A stretch of 64,000 bases of DNA from an uncultured Roseburia sp. (GCA_947038265.1 CAMQVP010000001.1:124968-188967); one strand, 5' to 3'. Shown: positions 42,373-61,363, counted from the stretch's first letter. The notes: generated by a model not told the origin, from the letters alone. Translations and numbers: made by a program.

Positions 42373-42589
42373 ATTCTCACACCCCCAAATTAATTTACAC
42401 CCATTGCATAGAAGAATCAAGTAAATTATAATTTTTTTTGCGTTTTATAAGCAGTATGGAAAAACTTTCCATAAATAGATATAGCAATTACCATACAGCA
42501 TTTAACAGCTAATCACAAAATTTGCAACAAGATTGGAGATTGTATCCGGCATTGTCCCCTTCCTCTCTTTCACAGATTATTTGTTTTGC

Positions 42590-42618
42590 TTGACAGTCTT
42601 TATAAAAATAGTTATAAT
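42590..42618 (+). promoter_or_regulatory. Sigma-A promoter for tRNA-Leu(TAG) (TTGACA-17-TATAAT)
   Basis: This is a perfect consensus pair ending 12 nt before the tRNA 5' end. Confidence 0.6.
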
Positions 42619-42630
42619 AACAGAGGTTTT

Positions 42631-42710
42631 GCGGGTATGGCGGAATTGGCAGACGCGCCAGATTTAGGTTCTGGTGGGAGACCGTGCAGGTTCAAGTCCT
42701 GTTACCCGCA
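42631..42710 (+). tRNA. tRNA-Leu (anticodon TAG)
   Basis: Acceptor GCGGGTA pairs with TACCCGC, the D-arm is GCGGAATTGGCAGACGC, the anticodon loop is TTTAGGT (TAG) and the T-arm reads GGTTCAAGTCC. The 3' 49 nt are duplicated at 59488-59536. Confidence 0.85.
42662..42710 (+). repeat. attL-side direct repeat (tRNA-Leu 3' end), identical to 59488-59536
   Basis: Forty-nine of 49 nt are identical. Flanking sequence diverges immediately outside both copies. Confidence 0.9.
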
Positions 42711-42765
42711 TGATTTCAGGGTTTTTGAAACATTTGAGATGTTTCAGAGACCCTGTTTTTTTGCA

Positions 42766-42789
42766 TTTGACAGCAATTTGACAGCAACC
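42766..42789 (+). repeat. Pair of TTGACAGCAA direct repeats ~58 bp inside attL (candidate integrase arm-type sites)
   Basis: The sequence tttgacagcaatttgacagcaacc matches the pair at 59353-59376 in the same orientation. Confidence 0.6.
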
Positions 42790-43034
42790 AGAAAAATAAG
42801 GATATAATTCAAAAATTTCGAGACCATTTTCGGATATGCCTTAACAGGGTTTTTTCTGCTGAAAGCATAACACATCTTCATTTGTCTTTCAATTAGTTTC
42901 ACTTTTCCTCTTTTTTATGAAACAGTGTTAAAAATTTTTATGTAGATTTTTACAAAAAAATATAATAAAATATCAAAAAAGAGGTTATATAGTATATTTT
43001 TTATACTGCATAACTTAATATAGGAGAAATGATA

Positions 43035-45236
43035 ATGAAAATAATTTCTGTTAAAAATTTTCCAAAAGAAAACCTTGAAAAAAGTTATCCAAACACTTCT
43101 TCTTTACCCAAAAGACTTTCCCCGGAAGAAGCATCTGAAAAAGGCATTCCAATTTATATTAGCGCAGACTGGTATACTGTCATAAAGGGAAAACCCATCT
43201 GTTTTGTATTTCTCTCTTTCCGTCAGCATCAAGTTTATGGAGAAGATGAAAATCAGCTGCAGGACTGCCTTTATTCTATAAACTTATGGGCGGATTCACA
43301 ATTATTTGATATTGAACTTCCAAAGCAGGAAATCTATAATTCAAAATGGCTAAAGCAGCTCCATACGAAAAACCTCATTTTGATTTCTAAATCACAATAT
43401 GAACTTCTGCTTCAAGCCATACAGCCGGATACAAATAGCTCCTTTTATTTTGAGAAAATCGGCATTCATCAACTTTATGGAAAATACTATTATGCAGCTT
43501 CCAATTGTGCCATTACATCAGAGGGCATTGACAAATCCATAAAAGCGATGCAGGAAGGATTCAATTTAGAAATCGATTCCGAACTTTCGTTGAAAGACGA
43601 AGCCCCAAAAAAAAGCATTGAGAATTTTATGGACTACACTGCCCAGAATTACCGCGTCTTTTATCCTATCCACTGCATTTCTATTCTCGCTGTCCTAAGA
43701 TACTTTTTAAAAAAACTGGGCCGATCGGCAGGAGCCGTGCTATGGATTGACGGAAAGGTTGCCAGTGGGAAAACACAATTAGCCGTAACTATGGGTGACT
43801 TTTTCAACCGAAGCAGTAATTGGGAAGACCAGATTAAACATCTGCAAACCACCAAATCAAAACCAAAACTAATTGCAGCAGAACTTTCCAAATACAGGAA
43901 TGCTGTATTTATCCTTGACGATATTAAAAAAGAAGAAACATCTGGCAGCCGGGACAATACCAAAAACATTACAGATCTGCTCATCCGCTCTATATACACC
44001 GGAAAAACAGGGGGTTTTGGCACAGATGAGCAGCCGATTGACGCTGCTGCCGTTATTACAGGGGAGTATTTTAAAGAAATAGAATCCACATCATCAAGAC
44101 TGCTCTATTTGAATATAGACGATTTTTTACAGAAAGAAACAAACAGCAATCAATTCAAAAATATTCAAAAAGACAAATCTTACCTTGCTAAGTTTATGTC
44201 CTATTTTATACAATGGCTATTTCAATGGATAGAAGACATCAATAATGCTAAATTCTTAGAAACCACACTTACTAATTTACAAAATGATGCAGCAGAATGT
44301 TTTCATGGAGAATTAAGTACGCGAATGGCTGAGACGCTGGCAAATTTCCAATTAGTATCAGAAATCCTCAATGAGTATTTTAAAGAAAACCAGATTCCAA
44401 AAATAAACTGCACAGAATTTCATAAGAAATCCAGAGATTCTCTAAAAAATCTCGCTTACGCCACATTATACAAAAGTCTGAATTACTATCCCCTCATAGA
44501 GGAGTGCTTTTATAAAACACTGTCAGACCTTAAAATCAAAGACTGCCGATACGGGGAACATTATTTAAATATCGCATTGTCATCAGGAAATGACCATCTA
44601 CTACATATAGCCAAAGCTAAAGATACAGATTACCTTCATGAACCTGGAGCAAGCGCTATCAATTACGACGCCAAAGGTGAAAAGAAACTCTGGCTGTTGG
44701 GACTTCAGGAAGGCTACGACGGCATCATGTTAAACATAAAAGAATGCAATGTATTATTAGTAAAATCCAAAGTTCTATGCAGTCTAATTCGCGAGAAAAT
44801 AAAATCAGATATACAAAAGTGGCATATTAAATTATATCATTCTGATATGGAAGATGAAAGAATCCTAAACACCCTATTGGAACATCATTGCATTTATGGA
44901 TACAAACGGAGAGACAACAATTCATTTGATAAGATCATCAATTATCCTGAATTCTCCAGCAACCAAAATTTACTGAAGGAATATCATGAAAAACCATTTA
45001 TTGAGCAAGAACAGATGCATCATATGGTAAAAATAAACATAGCAAATGAACGTATATATAATAGAATTACAGATATAAAAAAGCCAGCTATGGATTCGTT
45101 TGCAACTTTATTTTCTGCTATGAACACATATGATTCAAGCGAAGGCAGACATTTTATAGAACCAAACGATGGTCCATACATGAAAAACCTCAAAGACATA
45201 TTTGCTAAAATTAATAGATTTTCAGACCTCCGGTAA
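43035..45236 (+). CDS. Large (733 aa) P-loop NTPase of unknown function (Walker A GKVASGKT, Walker B VFILDD); candidate island replication/primase-helicase-like or defence ATPase
   Basis: The Walker A motif LWIDGKVASGKTQLA lies at ~aa 240 and the Walker B motif NAVFILDDIKKEE at ~aa 295. The gene is AT-rich and is the first gene inside attL, directly upstream of xis-int. I could recognise no other domain. Confidence 0.5.
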   Translation: MKIISVKNFPKENLEKSYPNTSSLPKRLSPEEASEKGIPIYISADWYTVIKGKPICFVFLSFRQHQVYGEDENQLQDCLYSINLWADSQLFDIELPKQEIYNSKWLKQLHTKNLILISKSQYELLLQAIQPDTNSSFYFEKIGIHQLYGKYYYAASNCAITSEGIDKSIKAMQEGFNLEIDSELSLKDEAPKKSIENFMDYTAQNYRVFYPIHCISILAVLRYFLKKLGRSAGAVLWIDGKVASGKTQLAVTMGDFFNRSSNWEDQIKHLQTTKSKPKLIAAELSKYRNAVFILDDIKKEETSGSRDNTKNITDLLIRSIYTGKTGGFGTDEQPIDAAAVITGEYFKEIESTSSRLLYLNIDDFLQKETNSNQFKNIQKDKSYLAKFMSYFIQWLFQWIEDINNAKFLETTLTNLQNDAAECFHGELSTRMAETLANFQLVSEILNEYFKENQIPKINCTEFHKKSRDSLKNLAYATLYKSLNYYPLIEECFYKTLSDLKIKDCRYGEHYLNIALSSGNDHLLHIAKAKDTDYLHEPGASAINYDAKGEKKLWLLGLQEGYDGIMLNIKECNVLLVKSKVLCSLIREKIKSDIQKWHIKLYHSDMEDERILNTLLEHHCIYGYKRRDNNSFDKIINYPEFSSNQNLLKEYHEKPFIEQEQMHHMVKINIANERIYNRITDIKKPAMDSFATLFSAMNTYDSSEGRHFIEPNDGPYMKNLKDIFAKINRFSDLR

Positions 45237-45315
45237 CATCAAAGTAGCAGTAAAATCACCAGTTATATTTATATATCATATCTGGGACTAAATAAAACAG
45301 AAAGGATGATTTACC

Positions 45316-45486
45316 ATGAACAATTATGAAAAAGCTGCTTTGAGCGTAGAAGAAACTGCCAAATACTTAAACATTGGAAGGAGCTTATGCTACCGGATGA
45401 TCAGGGAAAACAAAATTCCTCATTTGAAATTTGCAAGCCGGATTGTCGTTCCAAAAGTTAAATTGGACGAAATGTTAAGTAAATAA
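45316..45486 (+). CDS. xis: Excisionase-family helix-turn-helix DNA-binding protein (Xis-like, HTH_17)
   Basis: The 56-aa protein reads MNNYEKAALSVEETAKYLNIGRSLCYRMIRENKIPHLKFASRIVVPKVKLDEML, with RBS AAAGGATGA. It is not in the ORF track because of its small size. Confidence 0.8.
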   Translation: MNNYEKAALSVEETAKYLNIGRSLCYRMIRENKIPHLKFASRIVVPKVKLDEMLSK

Positions 45487-45554
45487 AAACGAAAGCACAA
45501 AGAGCAATCAGTAACGGTTGCTCTATTTTTATGCATTTTACGGAGGCACAGATT

Positions 45555-46760
45555 ATGAAAAAAAGAAGTAATGGAGAAGGCACAATCTGCAAAAGGAATG
45601 ATGGAAGATGGATGGCTCAAATCCTCATTGATACCGGATATGGAGAATTTAAAAGGAAAACCGTATATGGAAAAACACAGCGTGAAGTGAAAGAAAAATT
45701 AGAGCAGTTAAAATCAGACCAAAAACAAGGCCGGGTAATTGAAACTTCGGATATGCCTTTAGAACAGTGGATGAATATCTGGATTACAAATTATAAACCG
45801 GATTTGAAGATTACAACAAGAGAAGATTATGAATCCTATATTAATACGCATATCCGAGGATCAGATTTAGGAAAGATTCCTTTGAACAAATTAAAAACAA
45901 CGGATCTGCAATCATTTTATAACAATAAGCTTGCCGGAACCTGCAAAGGTCAAAAGAAGAAATTATCACCAACCACAGTCCGGTATATTCATGTAATTAT
46001 CAAAAGTGCGTTAAATCAGGCAATTCAAAACCGGATGATAAACAACAATGCTGCAAATGCAGTCGTTCTCCCAAAAAAGAACAAGACGGAAATCATTCCT
46101 CTCACGCAGGAAGAAGTAATCCGCTTCCTTGAAACCGCAAGAGGGGATCGGCTATATGCACTATATTTGCTGGAAATGATGACCGGATTACGAAAAGGAG
46201 AAATTTTAGGCTTACAATGGAATGACATTGATTTTAAATGCAAAAGAATTACTGTTTCGCATAATCTCTGCCGGATTAAAAGCCGAAATAAAAATGCAGG
46301 AAAAAAATATGAATTAATCCTGATGAATCCTAAAACAGCAACCTCCAAAAGATGTATTCCCATCAATGATTTTATGGCTGACGAACTGCAAAAACATAAA
46401 TTGCACCAGATGAAAGAAAAAGAATTATACGGTGACTATTACAATGACCTTGGAATGGTTTTTTGCAAGCCAGACGGAAACTACATTTATTCCAGGGATT
46501 TTCTAAGACAATATCAAAATCTCCTTTCTAAAGCCGGTCTGGAAAAAAAACGGTTCCACGACTTGCGCCATACAGTAGCCAGCCTGCTTATCAATGCAAA
46601 TGAAAATCCTAAAATGATACAACAATTACTCGGCCACTCAAATATAAGCACTACACTGGATATTTATGCGCATGTAATGGACAAGTCCATGAATAAAAGC
46701 GTGGATAAAATCTATCAGCAGCTAGGTTTAAATTCCATACCCCAAAAAAAGAATCCCTAA
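45555..46760 (+). CDS. int: Tyrosine site-specific integrase (phage integrase family)
   Basis: The N-terminal SAM-like domain reads MKKRSNGEGTICKRNDGRWMAQI. The catalytic motifs read FHDLRHTVASLL (HxxR) and LLGHSNISTTLDIYAHV (the nucleophile Tyr). The start sits at an ATG after CGGAGG. Confidence 0.92.
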   Translation: MKKRSNGEGTICKRNDGRWMAQILIDTGYGEFKRKTVYGKTQREVKEKLEQLKSDQKQGRVIETSDMPLEQWMNIWITNYKPDLKITTREDYESYINTHIRGSDLGKIPLNKLKTTDLQSFYNNKLAGTCKGQKKKLSPTTVRYIHVIIKSALNQAIQNRMINNNAANAVVLPKKNKTEIIPLTQEEVIRFLETARGDRLYALYLLEMMTGLRKGEILGLQWNDIDFKCKRITVSHNLCRIKSRNKNAGKKYELILMNPKTATSKRCIPINDFMADELQKHKLHQMKEKELYGDYYNDLGMVFCKPDGNYIYSRDFLRQYQNLLSKAGLEKKRFHDLRHTVASLLINANENPKMIQQLLGHSNISTTLDIYAHVMDKSMNKSVDKIYQQLGLNSIPQKKNP

Positions 46761-46881
46761 TACAGTAAGCCTGCCACTGGCCAGCCTTTCTGCATACTGA
46801 GACAGTATAAGAAGCCTATGAACTACTTAGCTTTCATAGGCTTCCTATTTGATTTCTCATTTTTAAAAACAAGGCTGTCTA

Positions 46882-47775
46882 TCAAAAATATCCTTCTGCC
46901 TCCTCTGCAGAAAGGCCGTATTCTTCCATAATCGTTTCTTTGATTTCCGCATCTCCATGCCCAAATTTTCGAAGCATGTCTATTGCTCCCTGAATTCCCT
47001 GCTGCAATCCTTGCTGCAGTCCTTGCTGAATTCCCTGTTGCAATCCTTCGCTTATCTTTTCTTCATCCCTTAATAATAACTGTGGTTCCATGATCTCCAT
47101 TAACGCCTGGCACATACTAGCATCTCCCTTCCATTCTTCCACTGCCTGCCTGTTTGCCCCTATGCTGACCTCTAGAACGGAATCTGCCAGCTCCAGGTCG
47201 TTTTTTCCTGTCAGACTCCGGATTTTTTCCAGCAGTTCCGTTATGTCCTCTTTCTCCAGTTTTTCCGATAACGCTCCAAGCCATGTATGCTCCGCCTTAT
47301 CCAGCTCGCCCGTGACAACAACCTGCACAGGAAACATATTTTTCCCTTTTATATAATATATCCCCCGGTACGGGTTGGATACCATATATCCATGCTCCGC
47401 AAAATATCGGAAAAGCCCTTCCGGCCTTGTTTCCCGGAGCAGCGACACCGTAATGTCATCCTCTTTTCTTTCATCAGCCGCTTTCCCATAAGCTTTATAA
47501 AGGCCTGCATATGCCAGGGCTTTGTAAAAGGCGTCTATATCCAAATGGTCTTTGGGCGATTTGTATTCCATAATGTTATGCCCCAAAAAGAAGGCCCCTA
47601 TTTCATTTCCAATCCGCACGGATGGTTCTTTTTTTATCACCAGCAGGTCAATTTCCAAAGGCTTGGTGTTTAAATTATATTCTTTCTCAAAGACCAGCGC
47701 ATCCCGGTTCTCTGCAAGCTCCAAACCCATTGCTGCCACAAAGCCCGGATGCCACTGCACTTTCCTGTCTTTCAT
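46882..47775 (-). CDS. Rpn-family recombination-promoting nuclease / putative transposase (PD-(D/E)XK, TIGR01784-like)
   Basis: The N-terminal core reads LEIDLLVIKKEP...FLGHNIMEYKSPKD. The C-terminal tail reads EGLQQGIQQGLQQGLQQGIQGAIDMLRKFG with characteristic QQG repeats. Confidence 0.6.
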   Translation of the reverse strand: MKDRKVQWHPGFVAAMGLELAENRDALVFEKEYNLNTKPLEIDLLVIKKEPSVRIGNEIGAFFLGHNIMEYKSPKDHLDIDAFYKALAYAGLYKAYGKAADERKEDDITVSLLRETRPEGLFRYFAEHGYMVSNPYRGIYYIKGKNMFPVQVVVTGELDKAEHTWLGALSEKLEKEDITELLEKIRSLTGKNDLELADSVLEVSIGANRQAVEEWKGDASMCQALMEIMEPQLLLRDEEKISEGLQQGIQQGLQQGLQQGIQGAIDMLRKFGHGDAEIKETIMEEYGLSAEEAEGYF

Positions 47776-48043
47776 AGTAATCTCCTTTGTGTGGTTAAAT
47801 TATAACATACCTTTCATAATTTCCGCAACCGCCCAAATCTCTACATTAAATTACCTTAGCAGGTATATAAATTTTCCATGTATCGGAAACGGCTGCAGGA
47901 TTTAGATTCCACAGCCGCTTCTGCTTCTTTTTCTTATTCCTCATTCCCATCCTTAGACAAAAGCGCGAGAACCGCCGTCAATATCCCCGCTACAACCGCC
48001 TTGATGATATGCTCCATAATTCCAACCGCCTTTCTGCGCTGCT

Positions 48044-48922
48044 TCATGCAATCCGTATCTCCCCGCTCTTTCTGTCATAGAGGTACACACTGTCCGACAG
48101 CCGCTCCTCCGGCATCACCTGCGTCCGGTTTACCTCCTTTACGATCTCCGCCAGTTCCTCCGGCTTCCCTGCGGAGACAGGGAGCAGCAGGATTTCATGT
48201 ATCGAGCTTGGCAGGATGTACAGGTCGCTTCCCAGTTCCTGCGCCAGCCCGGAAAACTCCCCCGCAAACAGCATGGCCGCAGCGCCGCCCAATTTAAAAC
48301 GGTTTGTGGCGACATACATCTGAATGGGGCTGCAGCCGCTGTCTGCAGGCGCTCCCAACATCTCACGGATGACTTTGTCCATGGTCTGGATTTTCGTCCC
48401 TCCGTTCTTTTTATGGTTCTCATACGCAGCTTCTCGCAGCTCTCTTTGGCAGATTCCCCAGTAATCCATATGGCTGTCTGTAATCAGGACTGCTGCAAAT
48501 CCGTCCCTGCCCGTTTCTGCAGTGAAATAATAGGCCTCTGCCAGATCCAGGAATCGTCTATGCGGCACGTCCTCCAGCATTTCCCTGTTCTTTTGGTAAT
48601 GCACCAGCCGTACGGAAACCTTTTTCCTTACACGTTTCCAGTCCATGAATTCCCCTTTGTCTAACGGCGTCTTCCCTGCATACTGCAGGTACAGACCCCA
48701 GATCTCCTCCACGGTTTCCCCAAATCCTTTCCCTCCGCACAGCTTTTCATGCCATGCGTCCAGGTAGATGACAGGGGAAGCCTCATCTCCCGGCCTTGAC
48801 AGAATCATCCCCGTCCGTTTTACGGAATTATTTTTTATGGTTTCCCGTATTTCCACGCTTCCGGTTCCCAGCCGGAACTGCATTTCCTCTTTTATTTTCT
48901 GCTTAAATTTTTCAAAATCCAT
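48044..48922 (-). CDS. Hypothetical protein (DUF5688-like, common on Firmicutes conjugative elements)
   Basis: The ~290-aa protein starts at an ATG after AAGGAGGAA. I recognised no catalytic motif. The family assignment is from memory only. Confidence 0.35.
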   Translation of the reverse strand: MDFEKFKQKIKEEMQFRLGTGSVEIRETIKNNSVKRTGMILSRPGDEASPVIYLDAWHEKLCGGKGFGETVEEIWGLYLQYAGKTPLDKGEFMDWKRVRKKVSVRLVHYQKNREMLEDVPHRRFLDLAEAYYFTAETGRDGFAAVLITDSHMDYWGICQRELREAAYENHKKNGGTKIQTMDKVIREMLGAPADSGCSPIQMYVATNRFKLGGAAAMLFAGEFSGLAQELGSDLYILPSSIHEILLLPVSAGKPEELAEIVKEVNRTQVMPEERLSDSVYLYDRKSGEIRIA

Positions 48923-49062
48923 CTCCACGCTTCCTCCTTAAAATAATCTGGGCGCATGGCATTTTCCCCATGCGCCCGCGTTATGTCCCGGCATTTATAA
49001 AATTATTCTTTGGGGTACGCATTAAATGCCGCATACCCATTTTGCAATGCGTATCCCGTCCT

Positions 49063-49272
49063 TTACGCCCTCCATGTAAAGGGCCGCTTCTTTCCAGCGG
49101 GCCTGTGGTCAAGGAGCATCCCTGCCTGCGTCCGCTCTTTTCCGCTTAAGCCGCCTCCCAGTATTTTTTCCAGCTCCGCAAACGTTTCCCCCTGCTCCGG
49201 GAGGCCCTGCTGTTTCGACAGCATGTCCAGCCGCTTTTCAACCGCCCATGCGGTAAAATCCTCTTCTTCCAT
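49063..49272 (-). CDS. Small hypothetical protein (69 aa)
   Basis: The protein reads MEEEDFTAWAVEKRLDMLSKQQGLPEQGETFAELEKILGG. The start sits after AGGAGG. Confidence 0.35.
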   Translation of the reverse strand: MEEEDFTAWAVEKRLDMLSKQQGLPEQGETFAELEKILGGGLSGKERTQAGMLLDHRPAGKKRPFTWRA

Positions 49273-49313
49273 GTCCTGCCTCCTGAAAATCCCATGGGGA
49301 TTTTGTCCATCCA

Positions 49314-50036
49314 CTATGCCGCTTCCTTCGGCTTTGTCCTCTTGAGGCTTCCCAGCGCCTTTTTGTAGATCTCCGGCGTCATCTGGCCTGTTCCTTTGAG
49401 CTGGTATCTGTCTAAGACCGCTTCCATGGCGATCCCCGTCCGCTCCAGCTCCTTTTCCAGTATCCGCATCTGGCCCGCCGTCAGCCCTTCCGGCGTTTTA
49501 TCAGGAGCTGCTTTATTTTCCGTCTCCCGGTCCAGCCCGTACACTTTCACTCCCCTCTGGTTTACGACTGCAAGAGCTGCAATTTCCCTCCGCCCGTTGT
49601 ACCCGATTGACTGCACGCGGAAACGGTCTTTTGCCACATAGCGGTCCCCATTTTTCTGGATGTCCGCTTTTTCAGCCGGAACCCAGATGAACGGGGCCGT
49701 ATAGAGCTCGCGCCCTATGCCCCAGTTGAAACACGCCCTCTTGAAGGAATCCGAAGCCTGCCCTTTCTCCTTTTCCGAATGACTCATAACGCCCACGTCC
49801 TGTTTTGCGATCCACTGCTTTTTCTCACTGTCCCAGACCTCCACCGTGCAGTACAGGTTCCCGTCGATGCTCTGGTGGCTCCTTTTCCAGCCGAAGGGCG
49901 AAAATGTCTCGTCCAATATCTTCTGGTCCACGCGCGCGTCCTTGAAAAGCAGGAGGCTTAAGCCGTTCCCGTTTATCGTGGACACCCTGCATTCAATCTC
50001 ATCCGCCCGCAGCAGCCGTATCATGTCATCTCCCAT
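49314..50036 (-). CDS. Rad52/22-family single-strand annealing protein (phage SSAP)
   Basis: The motif FSPFGWKRSHQSIDGNLYCTVEVWDSEKKQWIAKQDVGVMSHSEKEKGQASDSFKRACFNWGIGRELY is the Rad52 N-terminal annealing domain signature. Confidence 0.75.
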   Translation of the reverse strand: MGDDMIRLLRADEIECRVSTINGNGLSLLLFKDARVDQKILDETFSPFGWKRSHQSIDGNLYCTVEVWDSEKKQWIAKQDVGVMSHSEKEKGQASDSFKRACFNWGIGRELYTAPFIWVPAEKADIQKNGDRYVAKDRFRVQSIGYNGRREIAALAVVNQRGVKVYGLDRETENKAAPDKTPEGLTAGQMRILEKELERTGIAMEAVLDRYQLKGTGQMTPEIYKKALGSLKRTKPKEAA

Positions 50037-50181
50037 ATGGTTTTTCCTTTCCGTTTTTATATGCTTTTTCATTGCCTGTTCTTTTCTGCTTCTTTTCCGC
50101 TTCTTTCTGCCGCTTTATCCTTCCGCTCCATTCTTTTTGTCATCAGGATGACGGTTCCGGCCGCTTTCCACTGGCTCTGCC

Positions 50182-51111: not shown

Positions 51112-51191
51112 TTTTTCTTTTCCTCCCTGTAATTTTTTTGTTTTTTTGTTAATTTTGGAAGCATTTCTTCCGGAACATTTCACAGGCCCCG

Positions 51192-52067
51192 CTATGCAAT
51201 GCTTTTCACAAGGCCGTATGCCTTATCAAGCGCGGCATTCCCGTCCATGACTTTTGCAAACAGGCTCTCCCTGCGGTTTGCGCTCCCGCGCAGCGGCTTC
51301 CCGTGGGTGCTGAAATCCGACACTGCGTTTAGGAAGCGGTACGCGTTCTTCGGCACGTCCCTTAAGTCCGGGGCGTCGAAGTAGCGTGCCTTCATGTCTT
51401 CCCTGAGTTTCCGGATGTTGCCCTTCTGCACCCGCCCCATGCCTTCATCCAGGGGAAGAAGCGCGTTCATGCAGTCCTCTGCCTTATGGTCTGCCAGCTT
51501 AATGCGGCTCAAGGCTTCAAACTCCCTGCCGAGCGCATCCATGTAGCGCTCCGCCATAAAGAGCGTATGCTCCGCCTCCCCGATCTTATCCTGCACGCCT
51601 GCCGTGTGCATGGCGGACCAGCTTCTTGCAGCTGTGCCAAGCGCAAGGTTCAAAGTATTGCTGCACACGACACGCACGGGCGTCATCGCCACGCGGATTG
51701 CGCCGCTCCCGTCATGGGTGTTGGAGAAGACCATGTAGGGGCTGACGCGGTCGCCAAGCATAATGTACTCTCTCGGCATCCGCGCCAGAACCCAGACTTT
51801 CCTTCCCCCATTTAAAGAGCCTGCCGTCTCGTAGCGCACGCCTTCGCCCAAAAGCCTGTCCGTAAATGCAAAAGCTTCCTCATTCTGCACCACCCGGTAG
51901 CGATCTGAGACGATCCCCAGGACTTTTTCATCGGAATCCCTCACGTTTGCCTTAAAGCCCGACACAGGCTCCCCGTCTTCCGTTAAGATTTCCTTCTGCA
52001 CGACCTTCCAGCCCAGACCGGACGCCGCCAGCGCCTCCGCGGAGCTTAACGCGTCCGCCACCTTCAC
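51192..52067 (-). CDS. DUF932 domain protein (phage/plasmid-associated)
   Basis: The motif VVQNEEAFAFTDRLL...VFSNTHDGSGAIRVAMTPVRVVCSNTL matches DUF932. A GTG start is likely. Confidence 0.6.
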   Translation of the reverse strand: MKVADALSSAEALAASGLGWKVVQKEILTEDGEPVSGFKANVRDSDEKVLGIVSDRYRVVQNEEAFAFTDRLLGEGVRYETAGSLNGGRKVWVLARMPREYIMLGDRVSPYMVFSNTHDGSGAIRVAMTPVRVVCSNTLNLALGTAARSWSAMHTAGVQDKIGEAEHTLFMAERYMDALGREFEALSRIKLADHKAEDCMNALLPLDEGMGRVQKGNIRKLREDMKARYFDAPDLRDVPKNAYRFLNAVSDFSTHGKPLRGSANRRESLFAKVMDGNAALDKAYGLVKSIA

Positions 52068-52322
52068 CCCCAGCCCATGCCAGGGTTTTTCCCTTGTTTA
52101 AAACATTGTTTCCACATCTGCTGCCATTTCTGCATTCCTCCTTGTATATTAATATATAAAAACAGGGCTGCAGATTCCGCACGCACACGGTTTTCCACAG
52201 CCCTGTTTCTGCCTGTTTTAAATATTCTTCTGCTTATGCTGTTTTTTATTTCCTGCCGGGAACGCGCCAGTACATGAAAGCAGAAAAATGGGGCGTCTGC
52301 TTCCGCCCCATTTCCCTCCCGG

Positions 52323-55300
52323 TTATTTTTTCACTTTCACCGCTTTCTTTATGGTTCTATATGCGCCTTTGATTTTTGCGCCGCCTGCCTGCACGTAGGC
52401 GCACGCCCGGACATAGTATCTCTTCCCGCCTTTCAGGTTTGTTAATTTCTTTGAAACCGTCTTGTTTTTCTTAACCGTGGCGGTTTTTACGTTTTTCCGG
52501 AACTTTTTGTCCGTGCTGCACTCTATAATATATCCGGTGGCGGCCTTGTCCTTCTTCCACTTCACCGTGAGCGTCTTTGCTTTTGTGGATTTCGCGGAAG
52601 TTCCGGACAGCTTCTTTGGCGCCACCGTAAGCGTTATTGTCTTTGACGCGGCCTGGTACCTGCCGTTTGCCGCAGCGGTGATTACAATCTCCGTCACGCC
52701 GCAGCCTTTCAGCGTCACGGCGCCGTTTCCGTCCACGGAGGCGACTGCCGGGTTTTTCACGGCGTAGGACAGCGCGCCGCCTCCGCTTGATTTTGCGCCG
52801 ATGGAAAACGGCCTGTCGCCGTAAGTTTTGGCAAGGTCGGCGGCCGTGACGGTCTGTGTTTTTTTATTCTCCGGCTTCTCCTGGCTGCTGCCTCCTGCGT
52901 CTGGCTTCTGCGCGCCTCCCGGCTTCTGATCCCCTCCGGGCTTTGGGCTTACCGTGACGGCAATCGTTTTCTCTGCCGGGCCGTAATTCTCCGTCTCGGA
53001 AGCCTTTATGGTGATCCGGGCCGTCCCAGCCCCCATAAGGACCACAGTCCCTTTCGCGGACACAACCGCGACGGCTTCATTGTCGCTCTCATAGGACAGC
53101 GCGCCGTCCCCGTCCGTGCTGGCCCCGATGGGAAATGGCCCGTCTCCGAATGTTTTTTCAAAATCGCCCGCCATGATCGTCTGCGGCTCCTTCTCGTCCG
53201 CCGATGCCTTATGCCGGATGCCGTTCTCCACCGCATACGCCGCCGCCGAGCCCCTGGCGCAGACCATGCAGAGCCCCTCGCTGCAGCCCGCAAAGGCTCC
53301 CTCACCGATGGTCTGCACGCTTTCCGGGACTATGGCCTGCTCCAGGGCTGTGCAGCCTGCAAAGGCTCCAGCCCCGATCTCCTTCACGTTCGCGCCGACC
53401 CTCACCCTCTGCAGCGCCTCTATGCCGTAACAGGCTCTTTCTGCAATGGAGGACACCTCATATGTGCTTCCATTGATTGTTACGAGGTTTGGTATTGTTA
53501 CCACTGTGCGGTCATCATTAAGGCTCGTAAAGCACGCCTCTTTTGGCTCCGTGCTGGTGATTGTATACGTGCATCCCCCTATGTCATAGCTGGTCCCTGC
53601 CAGATCTGCGGGAGGCGGGTTTTCCCCGGCCCCTGACGCCGGGTTTACCGTGATGGTGATCACTTTCTGCGCCGCCTCGTATTCACTTGTTTCAGCCGCG
53701 GCAATGGTGACCTGTGCCGTTCCGGCTCCAATGACTGCCGCAACTCCTTTTGAGGAGACAATGACCACAGACTCATCGCTGGACTGATAAGACAGCACCC
53801 CGTCGCCGTCCGTGCTGGCTCCAATCGGGAATGCCGCGTCACCGACTGTCTTCGTATGGTTGCTTGCTGTAATCGTCTGTGGCTTTTTTGATATGACGGA
53901 ATAATCCATTCCATGTTTTTTTGCATATCTCTCTGCATAAGAACCCTTTGCACAATAAATGCATAAATCATCCCCGCATCCGTAAAAAGCATTGTAGCCT
54001 ATTTCCTCGACGCTGCCCGGCATGACAACTTCCTCCACTCCCAGACAGCCCTCGAAAGATGCATCGCCAATAATCTGTACGCCATCTGCCACTGTTATCC
54101 TGCCTTCCTTTCCCGCAGGGCATCGGATAAGGCTTTTAGGAGCTGCGTCTTCTCCTTTTCTGTATAGAATCCCATCCAAAGAAATATATACCCCGTTGTT
54201 TTTATCCACCATTATTTCCGTCACTCTTTTGCAGCTGGAAAAAGCATCTTCCGCTATGCCGGTAATGTCCTGTGGTATAGTTACGCTACCCTGCTTCCCG
54301 GCTGGACAGAACTGTAGTATGCGGCCCAGATACAGCATCCCTTCCCGTACGCTGAATAGCCTGTTCGCTTCATTCACTGTTATTTCCGCTAAATTCGTAC
54401 AGTCGCTAAATACGTCTGCAATTGAGGATTCTTCATCTCCTATTGACGCAATGCTTTTTGGCATTGCAATTCCTGTAATTCCACCGCAGCCGATAAATGC
54501 TGAAGCTTCTATATATTGAGCCTTTTCTTGAACGTCAATGGCTCCCTGCTTTCCTGCTGGACAGCAGACGAGGCGGGTTCCCGAATTTCCAAATTTGGAT
54601 CCTATATAATACAACGCGCCGTCCGAAGAACAATAATTTACATTCTCTTTGTCCACAACTATCTCGGCTAACCTGCTGCAGCCTTTAAAAGCGGTGTATT
54701 CAAGATTTCCATACTCATCATATGCTATATCTGTAACATCTTTTGAAATATTAATCCTTTCTAAATTACTGCAGCCATAAAACGCTCCGCGCTCTATTTG
54801 CGCCACATTATCCGGCACTGTGACGATTCCCTGCTTTCCAGCCGGACAGAATATCAAAGAAACGATTGATTCTTCATATTCATTTAGTACATTTTTATAT
54901 AATATGCCGTCTAAAGAACTGCAATATCTACTATTCGCATCCACAACGATCTCCGTCAGATTGCTGCATCCAAAAAATGACGCGGCGCTTACGATCATGA
55001 CGCTTTCTGGTATGGTTATGCTTGTCAATTCCCTGCAGTTATAAAATGATACAGAGTCTCCTTTGTCTCCAATCATTCTTACCCCTTCTGGTATTACCAA
55101 GCTCCCCTTCTTTCCTGCTGGACAGCAAAGCAGTTTTGTCCTGTCGCTATTATACAACACCCCTTCTAAGGAACTAAATTCTGTGTTGCCTGAATCAACC
55201 GAAATTTTTGATAAGTAAGGGCAGTTGCTTAATGCATTATATCCCAAAACTTTAACAGAATAAATTGGGCCTAGCTCGCGTTCATATCGCCATGTGTATG

Positions 55301-56018
55301 TAGCAATTGCCGTGACGCTTTCTGGTATAGTAATGTCACCTTGTTTTCCAGCCGGACAGCAGAGTAGAGTCGCCATGCTTTTATCGTACAGGACGCCATC
55401 TTTCGAACTATACTGCGCATTGCCTTCCCCCACTATAATCTCTGTCAATTTTTTGCAGTCATTGAGCGGCATATATGAGCCATATTCTTCATCAAGATAA
55501 CCAATTTTAGCAACGCTTTCAGGTATGGTAATGCTTCCTCTTTTCCCTTTTGGGCAATGAAGCAGGCTCGTCTTGCTTTCATTATACAGGATTCCATCCT
55601 GTGAGCTATACCACGCATTGCCTTCCTCTACAATAATCTCTGTCAGATTTTCACAGTCGTCAAATGCCATATGTGGGTAAACTCCGTAATCTCTGTCTTC
55701 TTCCTCAATCTCCTTAACGCCTTCCGGTATTGTAACGCTTTCTAACTGACTACAGCCGCTAAATGCATTCATTCCTATCTTCACAACCATCTTTCCGTCT
55801 ATTTCAAACGGAATAGCAAGAACATTGGCACTGCCTTTATATTTGATAATTTCAACTTTTCCAGCCTCCAGTTCCTTATACTCAAATCCGTCTTCTATGC
55901 TTTCCGCATTACCTGCCTCCCGCGCCTCCGCCGCTTTCGCCTCATGCATCCCGGCGGGATAGCTTACTGTGCCCGCTGTAACGCAAAGCGCCAGCAGGGC
56001 TGCCATGATTCTCTTCAT
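52323..56018 (-). CDS. Secreted cell-surface protein: signal peptide, multiple BspA-type leucine-rich repeats, 3x Big_2 Ig-like domains, C-terminal fibronectin type III domain
   Basis: The signal peptide reads MKRIMAALLALCVTAGTVSYPAG. The repeats read GNAxYSSxDGVLYxK..T.LLCCPAGKQG.ITIPESV. The Big_2 domains read TVGDAAFPIGASTDGDGVLSYQSSDESVVIVSSKG..VIGAGTAQVTI, three times. The FN3 domain reads TLTVKWKKDKAATGYIIECSTDKKF...KRYYVRACAY. The start sits after AGGAGG. Confidence 0.7.
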   Translation of the reverse strand: MKRIMAALLALCVTAGTVSYPAGMHEAKAAEAREAGNAESIEDGFEYKELEAGKVEIIKYKGSANVLAIPFEIDGKMVVKIGMNAFSGCSQLESVTIPEGVKEIEEEDRDYGVYPHMAFDDCENLTEIIVEEGNAWYSSQDGILYNESKTSLLHCPKGKRGSITIPESVAKIGYLDEEYGSYMPLNDCKKLTEIIVGEGNAQYSSKDGVLYDKSMATLLCCPAGKQGDITIPESVTAIATYTWRYERELGPIYSVKVLGYNALSNCPYLSKISVDSGNTEFSSLEGVLYNSDRTKLLCCPAGKKGSLVIPEGVRMIGDKGDSVSFYNCRELTSITIPESVMIVSAASFFGCSNLTEIVVDANSRYCSSLDGILYKNVLNEYEESIVSLIFCPAGKQGIVTVPDNVAQIERGAFYGCSNLERINISKDVTDIAYDEYGNLEYTAFKGCSRLAEIVVDKENVNYCSSDGALYYIGSKFGNSGTRLVCCPAGKQGAIDVQEKAQYIEASAFIGCGGITGIAMPKSIASIGDEESSIADVFSDCTNLAEITVNEANRLFSVREGMLYLGRILQFCPAGKQGSVTIPQDITGIAEDAFSSCKRVTEIMVDKNNGVYISLDGILYRKGEDAAPKSLIRCPAGKEGRITVADGVQIIGDASFEGCLGVEEVVMPGSVEEIGYNAFYGCGDDLCIYCAKGSYAERYAKKHGMDYSVISKKPQTITASNHTKTVGDAAFPIGASTDGDGVLSYQSSDESVVIVSSKGVAAVIGAGTAQVTIAAAETSEYEAAQKVITITVNPASGAGENPPPADLAGTSYDIGGCTYTITSTEPKEACFTSLNDDRTVVTIPNLVTINGSTYEVSSIAERACYGIEALQRVRVGANVKEIGAGAFAGCTALEQAIVPESVQTIGEGAFAGCSEGLCMVCARGSAAAYAVENGIRHKASADEKEPQTIMAGDFEKTFGDGPFPIGASTDGDGALSYESDNEAVAVVSAKGTVVLMGAGTARITIKASETENYGPAEKTIAVTVSPKPGGDQKPGGAQKPDAGGSSQEKPENKKTQTVTAADLAKTYGDRPFSIGAKSSGGGALSYAVKNPAVASVDGNGAVTLKGCGVTEIVITAAANGRYQAASKTITLTVAPKKLSGTSAKSTKAKTLTVKWKKDKAATGYIIECSTDKKFRKNVKTATVKKNKTVSKKLTNLKGGKRYYVRACAYVQAGGAKIKGAYRTIKKAVKVKK

Positions 56019-56296
56019 ATCGTTCCTCCTTTGATTTTTGTCTTTTTGTCTTTCCATAATTCAAACCCTTATGCGCATCCCTTGCCTCTTTTCATTTGTA
56101 AATGCCTTGCATCTCCCCTTTCCCGCTCTTCCTAAAAGCCGACTTTCTTTTTTCTGAAAATGGCTTTTCACTCCATCATGCCTTACATTTTATATCCTCT
56201 AAGCAAATTTTACAATGCTTATAGCAATTATATTTTCTCCCAAAGCAAAACGCAGCATTATATCATGAATAAAACAAACTCTGGAGGTGAATGATT

Positions 56297-56587
56297 ATGG
56301 TAAACGGTCTCGGCAAGCGTCTGGAACAGGCAAGGGTAAACCTGCACCTTTCGCAGAAGGAAGCCGCGGCGGCGATCGGAGCGTCCGCCTCCGTCATTTC
56401 CAATTATGAGAGCGGGGAGCGCACGCCAAGCGTGGAGAACCTCATGGCCTTAGCCTCCCTGTACCGCTGCTCCACCGACTATCTGCTCGGCCTTCAAAAG
56501 CCGTCCGACGCTTATGTTGACGCTTCCATGCTGGACGGCAGGCAGCGCCAGCTCCTGCAGGACTTCCTTCGGGGACTGGGCGGTTAG
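56297..56587 (+). CDS. XRE-family HTH regulator
   Basis: The HTH reads LEQARVNLHLSQKEAAAAIGASASVISNYESGERTPSVENLMALASLY. The RBS GGAGGTGA lies 8 nt before the ATG at 56297. Confidence 0.8.
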   Translation: MVNGLGKRLEQARVNLHLSQKEAAAAIGASASVISNYESGERTPSVENLMALASLYRCSTDYLLGLQKPSDAYVDASMLDGRQRQLLQDFLRGLGG

Positions 56588-56609
56588 GCCGTCATCTCTT
56601 TTCCGTCCG

Positions 56610-56963
56610 TCATTCCTCTTCCTGCCGCATATATGCGGACAGTTCTTTTTTCATGTCTTTTAAGTTTCCATGTATCATTTTCAGGATTCTGGCATGGATT
56701 CCGTCTGACTTCTGTATCTCCATATCATTTTCCAGTAAAATAAGGAGGCTTAATGCATCTGACAGCATTTCGTTTATCTGTTCCAGCTTTATGTCCTGTC
56801 CCTGTTCTTCTTTTTTCTCAAATCCCACGTAACATTCCCCCTGTTCCTTCTTTTCTCTTTCCGTCCCGATTCTTCCCTTTTTCTTTATTCCTGAAACCCG
56901 GCGCTGCCTGCCTGGTCTGTCATATCCTCTGGGTGTCTGCCAGGCTGTTCCTCCATCTCCCAA
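56610..56963 (-). CDS. Hypothetical ORF; possibly out-of-frame C-terminal remnant of the relaxase
   Basis: The ORF lies downstream of the truncated relaxase N-domain in a different frame. Only its C-terminal ~55 aa (MLSDALSLLILLENDMEIQK...) look protein-like. Confidence 0.25.
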   Translation of the reverse strand: MGDGGTAWQTPRGYDRPGRQRRVSGIKKKGRIGTEREKKEQGECYVGFEKKEEQGQDIKLEQINEMLSDALSLLILLENDMEIQKSDGIHARILKMIHGNLKDMKKELSAYMRQEEE

Positions 56964-57153
56964 AATATACCTTGTACCGCAGCCCCTCCAGCTTTCTGTA
57001 TATCTGATGCATCACAGTTACAGGAAAATAATATATAACTCAAAACGCCGCAGAAACAGCCGCACGGTTCTATGTCCCACAGGGAGCATAGAAACCTGCT
57101 CCCAGACACAGCCTGTTCTTTCATAACAAGCCGTCAGGGAATATGCGGCCATG

Positions 57154-57684
57154 TCATTTCTCTATCTCCTCTTTTAAGATCTGCCTGAACCTGTCCTGCC
57201 GTTCCCGTGTCTGCCTCATATTCTCGCGCCGTTTGTTTCCTGTGGTAAAATTTACGCTGTTAATGACAAAATGAATATGTATGCAGTCATTGCCACTGTC
57301 TTTCGTATGTGCGCCATATACAACCTGGCAGTGGTCCCTCTCATAAAAATCATATGCCATTTTCCGTGCAATCTTATCCACGTCTATTCTTTTTTCCTTA
57401 ATATGCCTTTCTTCCACAGATGAACAGGAATAAATCTCATGGTCCACATACCGCCCAAATTTACCTTTCCTCCTGTGCATCTTCTGTACGTCTTCAAACT
57501 GCCTTGTCATTCCTTCCGTCCCCGTAAATTCTGCAACGCCTATGCCGCCCCATGTAATCAGGTCATTGTCCGGCTTTCCATTTGTGCGCGTTACATACCG
57601 GATCAAATATACCATATCCTGAAAATTAGAATATTTTCCTTTTCTGGCTTTGTTAAGTAATAATCCGTATTCTGAACTTTTCAT
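57154..57684 (-). CDS. Relaxase/mobilization nuclease N-terminal domain (MobA/VirD2-like), apparently truncated
   Basis: The HUH motif III HTKDSGNDCIHIHFVINSVN fits HxDxxxxxHxHxxxN. The ORF stops 22 aa later, so only 176 aa remain, and it overlaps the mobC stop by 4 nt. Confidence 0.6.
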   Translation of the reverse strand: MKSSEYGLLLNKARKGKYSNFQDMVYLIRYVTRTNGKPDNDLITWGGIGVAEFTGTEGMTRQFEDVQKMHRRKGKFGRYVDHEIYSCSSVEERHIKEKRIDVDKIARKMAYDFYERDHCQVVYGAHTKDSGNDCIHIHFVINSVNFTTGNKRRENMRQTRERQDRFRQILKEEIEK

Positions 57685-57971
57685 TTTCTAAAATCCTCCC
57701 CAAATTTTTTCAGCGCCGTCTGAAATATTTTCCTCACCTCCTGCTCCGTCTGCCTGCCGTCAGACATTACCAGGCCATGATAAATCTCATTTAACAAATT
57801 ACAGATGTCAATTTTATCTGAAATAAAACGATAACTACTGATTTTTTCTTCCATGCTTTTTCTCAATATATAGACACTCATGCTTTCATTATTTTGTTTT
57901 GATAAGTATTTTAATTTTTCTTTTTGTTCTTTTGTTACTCGTAGTTTTATAGATTCATTTTTTGTTTTCAT
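57681..57971 (-). CDS. mobC: MobC-like ribbon-helix-helix mobilization accessory protein
   Basis: The RHH segment reads IKLRVTKEQKEKLKYLSKQNNESMSVYI. The gene is translationally coupled to the relaxase ORF. Confidence 0.6.
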   Translation of the reverse strand: MKTKNESIKLRVTKEQKEKLKYLSKQNNESMSVYILRKSMEEKISSYRFISDKIDICNLLNEIYHGLVMSDGRQTEQEVRKIFQTALKKFGEDFRK

Positions 57972-58258
57972 TCTTTTCTCCTTTTATAAATTTAAATATA
58001 TATAGCAGGTACGCAATTTTTCTTTTCATTTTTCATAAAATTCTGCTGTTTTACAAATGCATATCGTTGTTAAATTCTAATTTTTTTGTGGGTACATTTT
58101 TTTGATTCCTTATCAAATTGTCAGAAGCCATTTATCGTTTTGTTAGACATAACATAAAAATAATGAGGATCATAAATGCGCATGACCTCTATTGCTCAGT
58201 TGTGAGTAGAAAAATAATTATTTATAATTGAAGCATTCCGCTTTGGAAAGGAGAGAAA

Positions 58259-58414
58259 ATGGACGACTATTACATGACCGTAAAAGAATTCTGTGAGAGG
58301 CTGCAGGTCAGCCCGTCAACTGTTTACCGGATGATAAAGAACCATATGATCCCTGCTGTGAAATTTGGACGGTATTGGAAAATACCAAGAAGCGTATTTG
58401 ATTCCATACATTAG
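58259..58414 (+). CDS. Excisionase-family HTH DNA-binding protein (second xis-like gene)
   Basis: The 51-aa protein reads MDDYYMTVKEFCERLQVSPSTVYRMIKNHMIPAVKFGRYWKIPRSVFDSIH, with RBS GGAAAGGAGAG. It is not in the ORF track. Confidence 0.8.
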   Translation: MDDYYMTVKEFCERLQVSPSTVYRMIKNHMIPAVKFGRYWKIPRSVFDSIH

Positions 58415-58505
58415 TTTTTCAGAAAACAATCGGGAAGAACCATTGTTTGATTCTCCCCGACAGTACAAGTTCTTTATTTACAACATCAAAATTTATTTTT
58501 CAAAA

Positions 58506-58733
58506 TCAAAGCCTTATGGCATTGCCTGAAAAAGGATGCGCCCGTTCAAAATCAGAAGCCTCCCTGCTGATTTCTTCCGGCGTTTTCCTGTCAAAATACC
58601 CTCTTTGCCATTTTGTATAATCAAATTTTTCTCTGATAACAAAGGAAATGAACTGCTCTGCCTCCACAATTCCCATTTGATCTGTCAGGCATTTCATGCC
58701 CCTGTTCATAATTTCAACCATATTTGCAGACAT
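58506..58733 (-). CDS. Small hypothetical protein (75 aa), translationally coupled partner of the PIN-like gene
   Basis: Its start abuts the PIN ORF stop (58733/58734). I recognised no motif. Confidence 0.35.
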   Translation of the reverse strand: MSANMVEIMNRGMKCLTDQMGIVEAEQFISFVIREKFDYTKWQRGYFDRKTPEEISREASDFERAHPFSGNAIRL

Positions 58734-59177
58734 TTAATCCGCCTCCGTTTCTGTTACAAATTCGATTGGCGTAACCATTTTTATTTCATTCGTTTGATAC
58801 TTTAACAGCCGCTTATCCGTGGATATAAAATAGCTGCATTCCGCATAAATCGCCGAGGCAACATGACAGGCATCTTTAAATTTGATGCCAGTCTCCATAA
58901 TTTTCTGCGCTTTTTCCTCAATTTCTTTTTGGCATCTATCCCCTACATATACATGTGTATGTTTGTTCATAAACTCAAAAATTGTATTTTTTCGCATTTC
59001 AAATGGATTCTGGCTGCATTCGTACCTAAGCATATACGATGCGGCCATTTCCAGTTTTCTTTCTTTTATCAGGTTTTGAATATGAAGCTTACACTGCGTT
59101 TCCATTGCTACTTTCAACTGTGACTGATCATCATACGGCCTGTTGAAACAACACATATCAAGATAAACCCTCAACAC
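58734..59177 (-). CDS. PIN-domain (VapC-like) putative ribonuclease toxin
   Basis: The N-terminus reads VYLDMCCF. The C-terminal motif KDACHVASAIYAECSYFISTDKRLL fits the VapC pattern DAxIAAxA...LvTxDxxF. A GTG start is likely. Confidence 0.5.
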   Translation of the reverse strand: MLRVYLDMCCFNRPYDDQSQLKVAMETQCKLHIQNLIKERKLEMAASYMLRYECSQNPFEMRKNTIFEFMNKHTHVYVGDRCQKEIEEKAQKIMETGIKFKDACHVASAIYAECSYFISTDKRLLKYQTNEIKMVTPIEFVTETEAD

Positions 59178-59352
59178 CGCACCCCCTCTTGTTTTTTAAT
59201 TATAGCATAGATCTATCATTATGCAACTTGGTAAATCCTTGATTATTTCAAAAATTTTTCATTCCTGCCAAATATATTTCTAACACCTATTTGCATATAG
59301 GAATAATATATTTTTGAAAAAGATTATCTGCAACGCATAATTCTATATTTTT

Positions 59353-59376
59353 TTGACAGCAATTTTGACAGCAACG
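59353..59376 (+). repeat. Pair of TTGACAGCAA direct repeats ~115 bp inside attR (candidate arm-type sites)
   Basis: The sequence ttgacagcaattttgacagcaacg matches 42766-42789 with a single 1-nt indel. Confidence 0.6.
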
Positions 59377-59487
59377 CCAACAGCACAATAGAACACAGAA
59401 CAACACTATATGCACGAAATGTCTGAAAAGCCGAAATCCACAGCATGATATGATACCAAAAAACACCACATAAAAGCGATTCTTATT

Positions 59488-59536
59488 ATTTAGGTTCTGG
59501 TGGGAGACCGTGCAGGTTCAAGTCCTGTTACCCGCA
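59488..59536 (+). repeat. attR-side direct repeat: displaced copy of tRNA-Leu(TAG) 3' 49 nt
   Basis: The sequence atttaggttctggtgggagaccgtgcaggttcaagtcctgttacccgca is identical to the tRNA 3' end. No 5' half of a tRNA lies upstream. Confidence 0.9.
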
Positions 59537-59543
59537 TATACAG

Positions 59544-59588
59544 ACTAAAAACTATAGAACATTGCGGCATATGTTCTATAGTTTTTAT
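59544..59588. terminator. Terminator hairpin just outside attR
   Basis: The hairpin ctatagaacat-tgcggc-atgttctatag is followed by TTTTT. Confidence 0.6.
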
Positions 59589-59768: not shown

Positions 59769-59805
59769 AAAAAGAAAAATGAGACGTTTATGGAGGTTTA
59801 ACCAC

Positions 59806-61317: not shown

Positions 61318-61363
61318 TATCCGGTACGGATTTTGATAAAGAACAATTAGGAGGATGTATGAA

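Follow-up and report, generated by a model that had tools for sequence, protein, structure and literature searches.

A 64-kb stretch of DNA from an uncultured Roseburia sp. (GCA_947038265.1 CAMQVP010000001.1:124968-188967, hereafter the window) contains, at 42712-59487, what we read with a probability of roughly 80% as one integrated element of the integrative-mobilizable type, 16.8 kb long and inserted in the gene for tRNA-Leu(TAG) of a Lachnospiraceae bacterium from the mouse gut. All coordinates below are window positions unless a contig (L060, for example) is named. A tyrosine integrase, probably positioned by TGACAGCA repeats on both arms of the element, would exchange strands in the anticodon loop of the tRNA (ATTTAGG, 42662 onward). 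The incoming element would bring its own tRNA portion, reaching from the anticodon loop to the 3' terminus, together with a terminator, and so rebuild the tRNA at attL; the host's original tRNA 3' half and terminator would be displaced by 16.8 kb, to attR. Excision would need Int and the adjacent Xis. The excised circle would be replicated by a 735-amino-acid (aa) protein encoded beside attL, whose predicted fold suggests an MCM-type self-loading helicase resembling Cch and the Rep proteins of Staphylococcus aureus pathogenicity islands (SaPIs). A 176-aa relaxase-domain protein and a NikA-like protein may process the circle for transfer via another element's conjugation pore. The cargo comprises a secreted BspA-type leucine-rich-repeat (LRR) protein, a single-strand annealing protein (SSAP) and exonuclease pair, DUF932 and DUF5688 proteins, and a weakly PIN-like pair.

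The boundaries of the element are marked by the tRNA gene and a direct repeat. ARAGORN placed tRNA-Leu(TAG) at 42630-42711, and Rfam placed a tRNA at 42631-42710 (56.4 bits) with no other RNA family within 42000-60500. The last 49 nt of the tRNA plus one further identical base form a perfect direct repeat (42662-42711 = 59488-59537; 50/50 identity by repeat finder). The initial annotation had recognized a perfect two-copy repeat of the tRNA 3' end, for which its length of 49 bp is corrected here to 50 bp. Both programs found a tRNA body at the first copy only, and the absence of an Rfam match at the second bears out the earlier statement that no tRNA is present there. A 22-nt core of the repeat, with up to 3 mismatches allowed, was present at only two places in the 64 kb (0 in 100 shuffles). 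No third or internal att-like copy was therefore found in the window by this search, which argues that no degenerate att remnant lies inside the island.

The genes for integration and excision lie near the attL end, on the plus strand. The tyrosine integrase gene (45531-46760; PF00589, 7e-28; phrog_1, 5e-78) is given a start at 45555 by gene callers, yielding a 401-aa protein, and its catalytic motifs TGLRKGE, HDLRH, LGHSNI and DIYAH (R, HxxR, H, Y) are readable in the translation. Every strain checked has this gene at full length. Immediately upstream is xis, encoding an excisionase-family HTH_17 protein (45316-45486; TIGR01764, 3e-10).

Relatives of the element allowed the probable crossover point to be located. 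Integrase homologues were found at 67-83% identity; two of them, 72% identical (aa) to the window integrase, belong to elements of 6.84 kb (L060) and 6.73 kb (L063) in other hosts, each placed directly behind a tRNA-Leu(TAG) in a differing context and bounded by the same ~50-bp repeats. An element with one and the same integrase protein (P0014) occurs in tRNA-Leu on L063 and at two non-tRNA sites, the secondary-site copies being L062:6683-13420, L064:1-6715 and L065:51-6790. At the right junction, L062 and L064 have only ATTTAGGTTC in common with the tRNA, and L065 has only ATTTA. The left junction in L062 and L064 reads ATTTTGTTTC followed by a tRNA-like 3' part, which stays with the element at the left junction of the secondary-site insertions. 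On L063 itself, the attL copy has GGGCAACC and the attR copy has GGGAGACC; the attL version is the one that the element carries everywhere, and the attR version is presumably the host's original. From these junctions we infer that strand exchange takes place within the anticodon loop, where the repeat begins on its 5' side, and that the element supplies its own tRNA 3' half (~40 nt), carried in the P' arm. The corresponding overlap region in the window would be ATTTAGGTTC at 42662-42671 (plus strand).

The junctions of the relatives suggest how both ends of the island arose. Downstream of a sigma-70-type consensus promoter (TTGACA-17-TATAAT, 42590-42618, plus strand, 12/12 matches), the tRNA at 42631-42710 (plus strand) would be a hybrid, with a host 5' part and an element part from the anticodon loop on. 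The attL repeat copy (42662-42711, plus strand) starts in the anticodon loop and extends 1 nt past the tRNA 3' end, and the rebuilt tRNA would be ended by an element-borne terminator (hairpin and T-run, 42717-42762, plus strand; hairpin with T7 at 42717-42755) that is kept in relatives (alignment A2). At the other end, the attR copy (59488-59537, plus strand) would be the displaced 3' half of the host tRNA, and a 17-bp perfect hairpin with a T-rich tail (59546-59587, plus strand) its orphaned terminator. The restored attB is predicted to have the tRNA directly followed by ATACAGACTAAAAACTATAG.

Three features are common to the window and its relatives: the terminator after attL, and TGACAGCA repeats on the attL side and on the attR side (alignments A1 and A2). 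In all nine relatives for which both ends of the element are on the contig (9/9), as in the window, two TGACAGCA copies lie just after attL and two to four lie ~115-135 nt before attR; the whole window has five copies, against 1.1 expected. The attL-side copies lie in two tandem 11-bp repeats ATTTGACAGCA (42765-42786, plus strand; alignment A2), which are candidate arm-type sites for integrase or Xis in the P' arm. Those of the P arm comprise two copies of TGACAGCAA and one of CAACAGCA (59354-59385, plus strand), at a distance from attR that is similar in all relatives. Insertion into the tRNA 3' half by a tyrosine integrase, as originally proposed, is thus supported by the repeats, int and xis, the 72%-identical integrases at tRNA-Leu(TAG) elsewhere and the secondary-site junctions. 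We regard the integration mechanism as having strong comparative support.

The sublocation scheme of Williams, from 2002, reportedly includes an anticodon-loop class of tRNA-gene integration by tyrosine integrases. The island resembles that class in its crossover in the anticodon loop, its element-supplied tRNA 3' part and its ~45-50-bp repeat reaching the tRNA 3' end; no essential difference is evident, with the island crossover deduced from the secondary-site insertions of relatives. NBU1 of Bacteroides, a mobilizable element occupying the 3' end of a tRNA-Leu gene, is similar by description: it too is small, belongs to a gut anaerobe, targets a tRNA-Leu gene and encodes a tyrosine integrase, a mob function and a replication-type (primase-like) accessory protein. 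It differs in belonging to a different phylum and in using a short core at the extreme 3' end of the tRNA, not the anticodon loop.

The 735-aa protein (43029-45236, plus strand) had no match in Pfam, PHROG, NCBIfam or PADLOC. Searching a database of 5.8 billion sequences gave 27 homologues at E<=1e-5 among 8,000 scored candidates, none with a Pfam domain. Walker A (GKVASGKT) and Walker B (FILDD) motifs fall at invariant or nearly invariant columns of a 26-sequence alignment (A3). A confident AlphaFold (AF2) model (predicted local distance difference test score, pLDDT, 85.9; predicted template modelling score, pTM, 0.81) predicts an N-terminal domain and an MCM-type AAA+ core. The first Foldseek match of this model in PDB was Cch of the staphylococcal cassette chromosome SCCmec (5dgk, E 6e-13), and the second was the SaPIbov1 Rep (8tch, E 3e-10). 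A sequence profile of the family, compared with PDB sequences, returned generic P-loop matches only (E >0.005). Integrated staphylococcal elements use Cch and the SaPI Reps as self-loading replicative helicase-initiators (PMC7581432, PMC9371898). On the basis of the predicted fold, the 735-aa protein may therefore act as a replication initiator for the excised circle. Identity with a type IV coupling protein was considered and dropped, as the sequence reads without an N-terminal hydrophobic (membrane-type) segment and the fold is MCM-like.

The block common to the relatives consists of a ~710-aa homologue of this protein, xis and int. In the small relatives, the gene after int encodes a 360-aa protein that matches the filamentous-phage G2P nuclease of rolling-circle replication (RCR; PF05144, 25.6 bits, cut-off 21.7). 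The complete order in these minimal elements is MCM-like helicase, xis, int, G2P-like RCR protein, reverse HTH_17, Mor-type activator and two to three small open reading frames (ORFs). Minimal tRNA-Leu(TAG)-specific elements of 6.7-6.9 kb were seen at L060:5237-12159 and L063:409-7221 and as the whole contigs L068, L069 and L072; the tRNA-Leu targeted by L072 differs in its variable arm. Logan contigs equal to the small element (6.7-6.9 kb) were considered as possible circles; this was dropped because their ends are those expected from a k=31 assembly graph break at the repeat.

The remainder of the island carries the mobilization genes and cargo. The 176-aa MobA/VirD2-type protein (57154-57684, minus strand) contains a relaxase domain (PF03432, 43.5 bits against a cut-off of 24.6), the motif VYLIRYVTR with a candidate catalytic Tyr, and the His-rich motif HTKDSGNDCIHIHFVIN. 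To its right in the window lies the gene for a putative NikA-like ribbon-helix-helix relaxosome accessory protein (57681-57971, minus strand; 25.4 bits, just under the cut-off of 27). The AT-rich divergent intergenic region at 57972-58258 would be the likeliest place for an origin of transfer (oriT), and beyond it lies a second excisionase-family HTH_17 gene (58259-58414, plus strand), which in relatives has the helicase gene directly after it. The initial annotation had taken the mobilization genes for remnants. The length of 176 aa is, however, kept in divergent relatives (L074 and L077), which argues for a conserved full-length gene rather than a truncation.

The same two contigs, which carry two of the 27 helicase homologues, connect the mobilization block to the helicase. 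On L074 the order is DUF5688, SSAP, YqaJ, DUF932, LRR protein, HTH_3, 176-aa relaxase, NikA-like protein and HTH_17, and then the helicase homologue directly; the contig and window 48415-58440 are colinear, with aa identities of up to 85-92% (SSAP 86%, YqaJ 85%, DUF932 87%). The order on L077 is HTH_3, one further gene, relaxase (176 aa), NikA, HTH_17 and helicase. Both correspond to the window island circularized across attR/attL, and thus place the helicase in one backbone together with the genes for mobilization and cargo. L074 (Logan SRR28017738_9451, 13,468 bp) consists of this cargo and mobilization backbone with the helicase homologue, and has no xis-int within the part seen. It may be a non-integrated, plasmid-like form of the backbone, and could alternatively be a differently integrated form.

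Composition changes sharply inside the island, as first noted. Windowed GC content is 0.34-0.37 at 42.5-46.5 kb, 0.52-0.60 at 48-54 kb and 0.34-0.36 at 57.5-59.5 kb, with sharp steps at ~46.8 kb and ~57 kb, and the flanks have 0.42-0.50. Those steps would suit a tandem or accreted composite, in which a helicase-xis-int element of the 6.8-kb type sits beside an unrelated degenerate conjugative-element or phage fragment and the internal att has been lost. Small 6.7-6.8-kb elements with helicase, xis, int, RCR Rep and Mor do exist, accretion beside other mobile DNA is seen at such sites (L060, L063), and the window is without the Rep/Mor module of the small elements. We nevertheless consider a composite unlikely: an internal att-like sequence is missing even with 3 mismatches, the same family-specific repeats occupy both outer arms, and the contiguity of the helicase with the relaxase-NikA-HTH_17 block on L074 and L077 puts it in the backbone of the supposedly foreign part. 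The gene orders instead favor one coherent element with reshuffled modules over an int module plus junk. Compared with L074, the window island has gained att, the PIN-like pair and xis-int-Rpn; compared with the 6.8-kb elements, it has a relaxase and cargo block instead of the G2P-like Rep and Mor. Such reshuffling explains the GC mosaic, and the mosaic nature proposed earlier finds support in the occurrence of the helicase-xis-int and cargo/mobilization blocks in different combinations elsewhere.

A single element of this kind resembles the integrative mobilizable elements (IMEs) of Firmicutes surveyed in streptococci and Faecalibacterium (PMC12084326). Like them, it combines a tyrosine integrase and an excisionase with a PF03432-type relaxase-domain protein and its small accessory protein, lacks genes for a conjugation pore, is inserted site-specifically between direct repeats, and shows modular exchange and accretion involving other elements. 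Type IV secretion genes (VirB4, coupling protein and others) were not found in any island ORF with Pfam, NCBIfam or PHROGs. The island differs from these IMEs in that its relaxase has only 176 aa, an MCM-like helicase lies beside attP, no coupling protein or oriT was identified, and mobilization is predicted from genes.

The Rep-like helicase fold raises another explanation, that of a defective prophage or a phage satellite like the phage-inducible chromosomal islands (PICIs) and SaPIs, spread by helper-phage packaging and replicated after induction by the Rep-like helicase. The int-xis module, a size of about 15 kb, a Cro/CI-type helix-turn-helix (HTH) protein, and the phage-type SSAP and YqaJ exonuclease with their strong PHROG matches would all fit, as would the Mor-type activator and filamentous-phage G2P-like Rep of the small relatives. 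A satellite is nonetheless quite unlikely here, given that Pfam and PHROGs revealed no genes for terminase, capsid, portal, tail or capsid remodelling, that there was no match in a phage collection or IMG/VR, and that a conserved relaxase-domain protein and its accessory protein are present. Megablast of the whole island against phage and plasmid collections gave no match, and IMG/VR scans with int and with the helicase returned nothing useful. SaPIs have packaging genes and iteron origins, neither of which was found in the island; PICI/SaPI identity was dropped, packaging and morphogenesis families not having been found and viral collections giving no matches. Identity with staphylococcal cassette chromosome (SCC) elements was likewise dropped, since SCC uses serine recombinases at rlmH and the island has a tyrosine integrase and a tRNA target.

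Occupancy of the site within the species was assessed on contigs found by exact-protein look-ups with two flanking genes, covering the 23 and 24 longest contigs, respectively. These conspecific records are labelled 'Eubacterium sp.' (metagenome-assembled genome, MAG) or Lachnospiraceae bacterium IMSAGC012 and come from mouse gut. The island was present on every one of these contigs. Nine more contigs have a variant MCP allele; of six places examined, five carried the island (5/6), and the sixth (L082), a contig starting 368 nt short of the MCP gene, does not extend to the site. In total, the island was seen on about 30 conspecific contigs. Wherever an examined contig covers an end of the island, the 50-bp repeat there is exact, with attR exact in 7/7. 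Conspecific strains are 99.4-100% identical to the window, with single-nucleotide polymorphisms (SNPs) at 4-6 per kb in the island and 2-4 per kb in the flanks, a pattern expected for vertical co-inheritance under somewhat relaxed constraint.

Presence in every conspecific contig sampled, divergence along with the flanks and the lack of an empty site could also mean that the region is ancestral chromosome, with the second 50-bp copy left over from a tRNA gene that was duplicated or has decayed. This is highly improbable. The repeat begins exactly at the crossover position of the mobile relatives, int, xis and family-specific arm repeats lie at the ends, the composition is foreign, and the same modules occur in unrelated genomic contexts. 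The nearest other species, found by a GTDB scan with MnhE that returned no entry of the window's own species, has an MnhE of 82% aa identity; its homology ends at window 42450, where it has a tRNA-Pro and no MCP gene. Because this species is without the tRNA-Leu locus, it is uninformative on the ancestral state.

Signs of decay are seen in several strains. The helicase gene is frameshifted in L003, and a 179-aa helicase fragment is recorded on 86 contigs; the 297-aa gene described below has a nonsense mutation in L003 and L005; and mob or nikA genes are partial in L083, L079 and L080. By comparison among strains, int, xis and both att copies are intact in every one checked. The island thus appears fixed, vertically inherited and partly decaying in this species, and is now probably rarely mobile or no longer mobile.

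Several observations weigh against an integrated mobilizable element as proposed here. No empty tRNA-Leu site, for which the initial annotation had proposed a comparison with related genomes, was found among the conspecific contigs reaching the site, all of them being occupied, and the nearest other species has no such locus. The exact attB/attR junction pattern had no match in Joint Genome Institute (JGI) metagenomes, nor did the attP pattern (P arm, core, P' arm) in metagenome or viral collections. Because neither an empty site nor an attP junction was found, insertion in this lineage is deduced and not observed. A GC spread of more than 20 points between parts of the island means that the present element is itself recombinant. 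Instead of integrase arm sites, the TGACAGCA repeats could be Xis sites or iterons to which the 735-aa protein would in principle bind; no clear iteron-type origin was seen beside the helicase gene. The helicase assignment stands on a predicted structure at 13% sequence identity to Cch and SaPI Rep (5dgk, 8tch), with no Pfam match and with 735 aa compared with about 490-520 aa in the matched chains. At 176 aa the relaxase is shorter than usual, and neither the NikA nor the PIN match reaches its Pfam cut-off. Finally, neither an oriT nor a replication origin was identified, folding of 57972-58258 not being significant (z = -1.15).

The remaining genes of the island lie between int and the mobilization block, and next to attR. 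A hairpin (46807-46848) separates int from a convergent gene for a 297-aa protein (46882-47775, minus strand) with faint Rpn-family nuclease similarity and a QQGL/QQGI repeat; a 12-bp periodic DNA repeat at 46990-47048 encodes QQGLQQGIQQG in its C-terminal part. In the relative L073, a homologue of this gene (7309-7788, matching window 47545-47712) follows int on the same strand, and the opposite orientation in the window suggests a local inversion. L073 also has a degenerate tRNA-like core of only ~20 nt at 3294-3317, without a tRNA body.

Next come minus-strand genes for a DUF5688 protein (48044-48928, 2e-84; a literature search for DUF5688/PF18941 turned up no paper), the Rad52/Erf-like SSAP (49314-50072; 236 aa as called in other strains), the YqaJ/RecE-like exonuclease (50182-51183; 309 aa as called in other strains) and a DUF932 protein (51192-52067, 1e-55). 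The true start of the exonuclease gene is probably at about 51111. Apparent YqaJ pseudogenes in some strains were rejected as a product of an over-long ORF start, the gene encoding 309 aa in all strains. The largest cargo gene (52323-56057, minus strand) encodes a 1244-aa BspA-type LRR protein with Big-like and fn3 domains, predicted to be secreted; an N-terminal hydrophobic segment can be read from its sequence. DNA repeats with periods of ~200-315 bp at 54289-55737 (families D1, D2 and D4) correspond to its BspA-type LRR modules, and its length differs among strains (1231, 1232 or 1244 aa). The int-xis module, phage-type recombination genes and surface adhesin-like gene listed in the initial annotation were all recovered, as int, xis, SSAP with YqaJ, and the BspA-type LRR protein.

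An HTH_3 regulator of the Cro/CI type (56291-56587, plus strand) and a 117-aa ORF of doubtful status (56610-56963, minus strand; frameshifted, 72 aa, in several strains) precede the relaxase gene. Near attR, a 75-aa protein (58506-58733, minus strand) is paired with a weakly PIN-like protein of 146/147 aa (58734-59177, minus strand). The pair noted earlier is therefore present, and its PIN assignment is weak (21.9 bits, under the cut-off of 23.6). PADLOC gave no credible defence-system match in the island, and a defence-island reading was dropped for that reason.

An Mrp/Mnh antiporter operon that includes the minus-strand MnhE gene (41872-42372) flanks the island on the left. The right flank (59806-64000, and L001:10001-17626) has the MCP gene, then a 1775-aa Flg_new-repeat protein and a sortase, so that a second large surface-protein locus directly adjoins the island. 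Another tRNA gene in the window, tRNA-Leu(CAG), is at 10324-10409.

Beyond this one island, we tentatively suggest, at somewhat less than even odds, that it and its relatives form a so far undescribed family of integrative elements that replicate and are found in gut Lachnospiraceae. The family would combine an anticodon-loop tRNA-Leu(TAG) target and an MCM-like helicase beside attP and xis-int with interchangeable DNA-processing modules: the minimal elements of 6.8 kb would have a G2P-like RCR protein, and those of 13-17 kb a 176-aa mini-relaxase.

A genomic island in a tRNA gene is textbook biology, and the integrative mobilizable kind is already known; what is new here, the unannotated helicase family and a small undescribed element family, arose as by-products and is of modest novelty. 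Natural secondary-site insertions have allowed the crossover point and the element-borne tRNA 3' half to be demonstrated from sequence. A rare family that domain databases do not recognize gains a putative function, that of a Cch/SaPI-Rep-like MCM-type helicase, an assignment that would extend replicative integrated elements from staphylococci to gut Clostridia. The BspA-type surface protein appears to have been delivered by the element and is now in every sampled strain of this mouse-gut commensal, where it may bear on host colonization.

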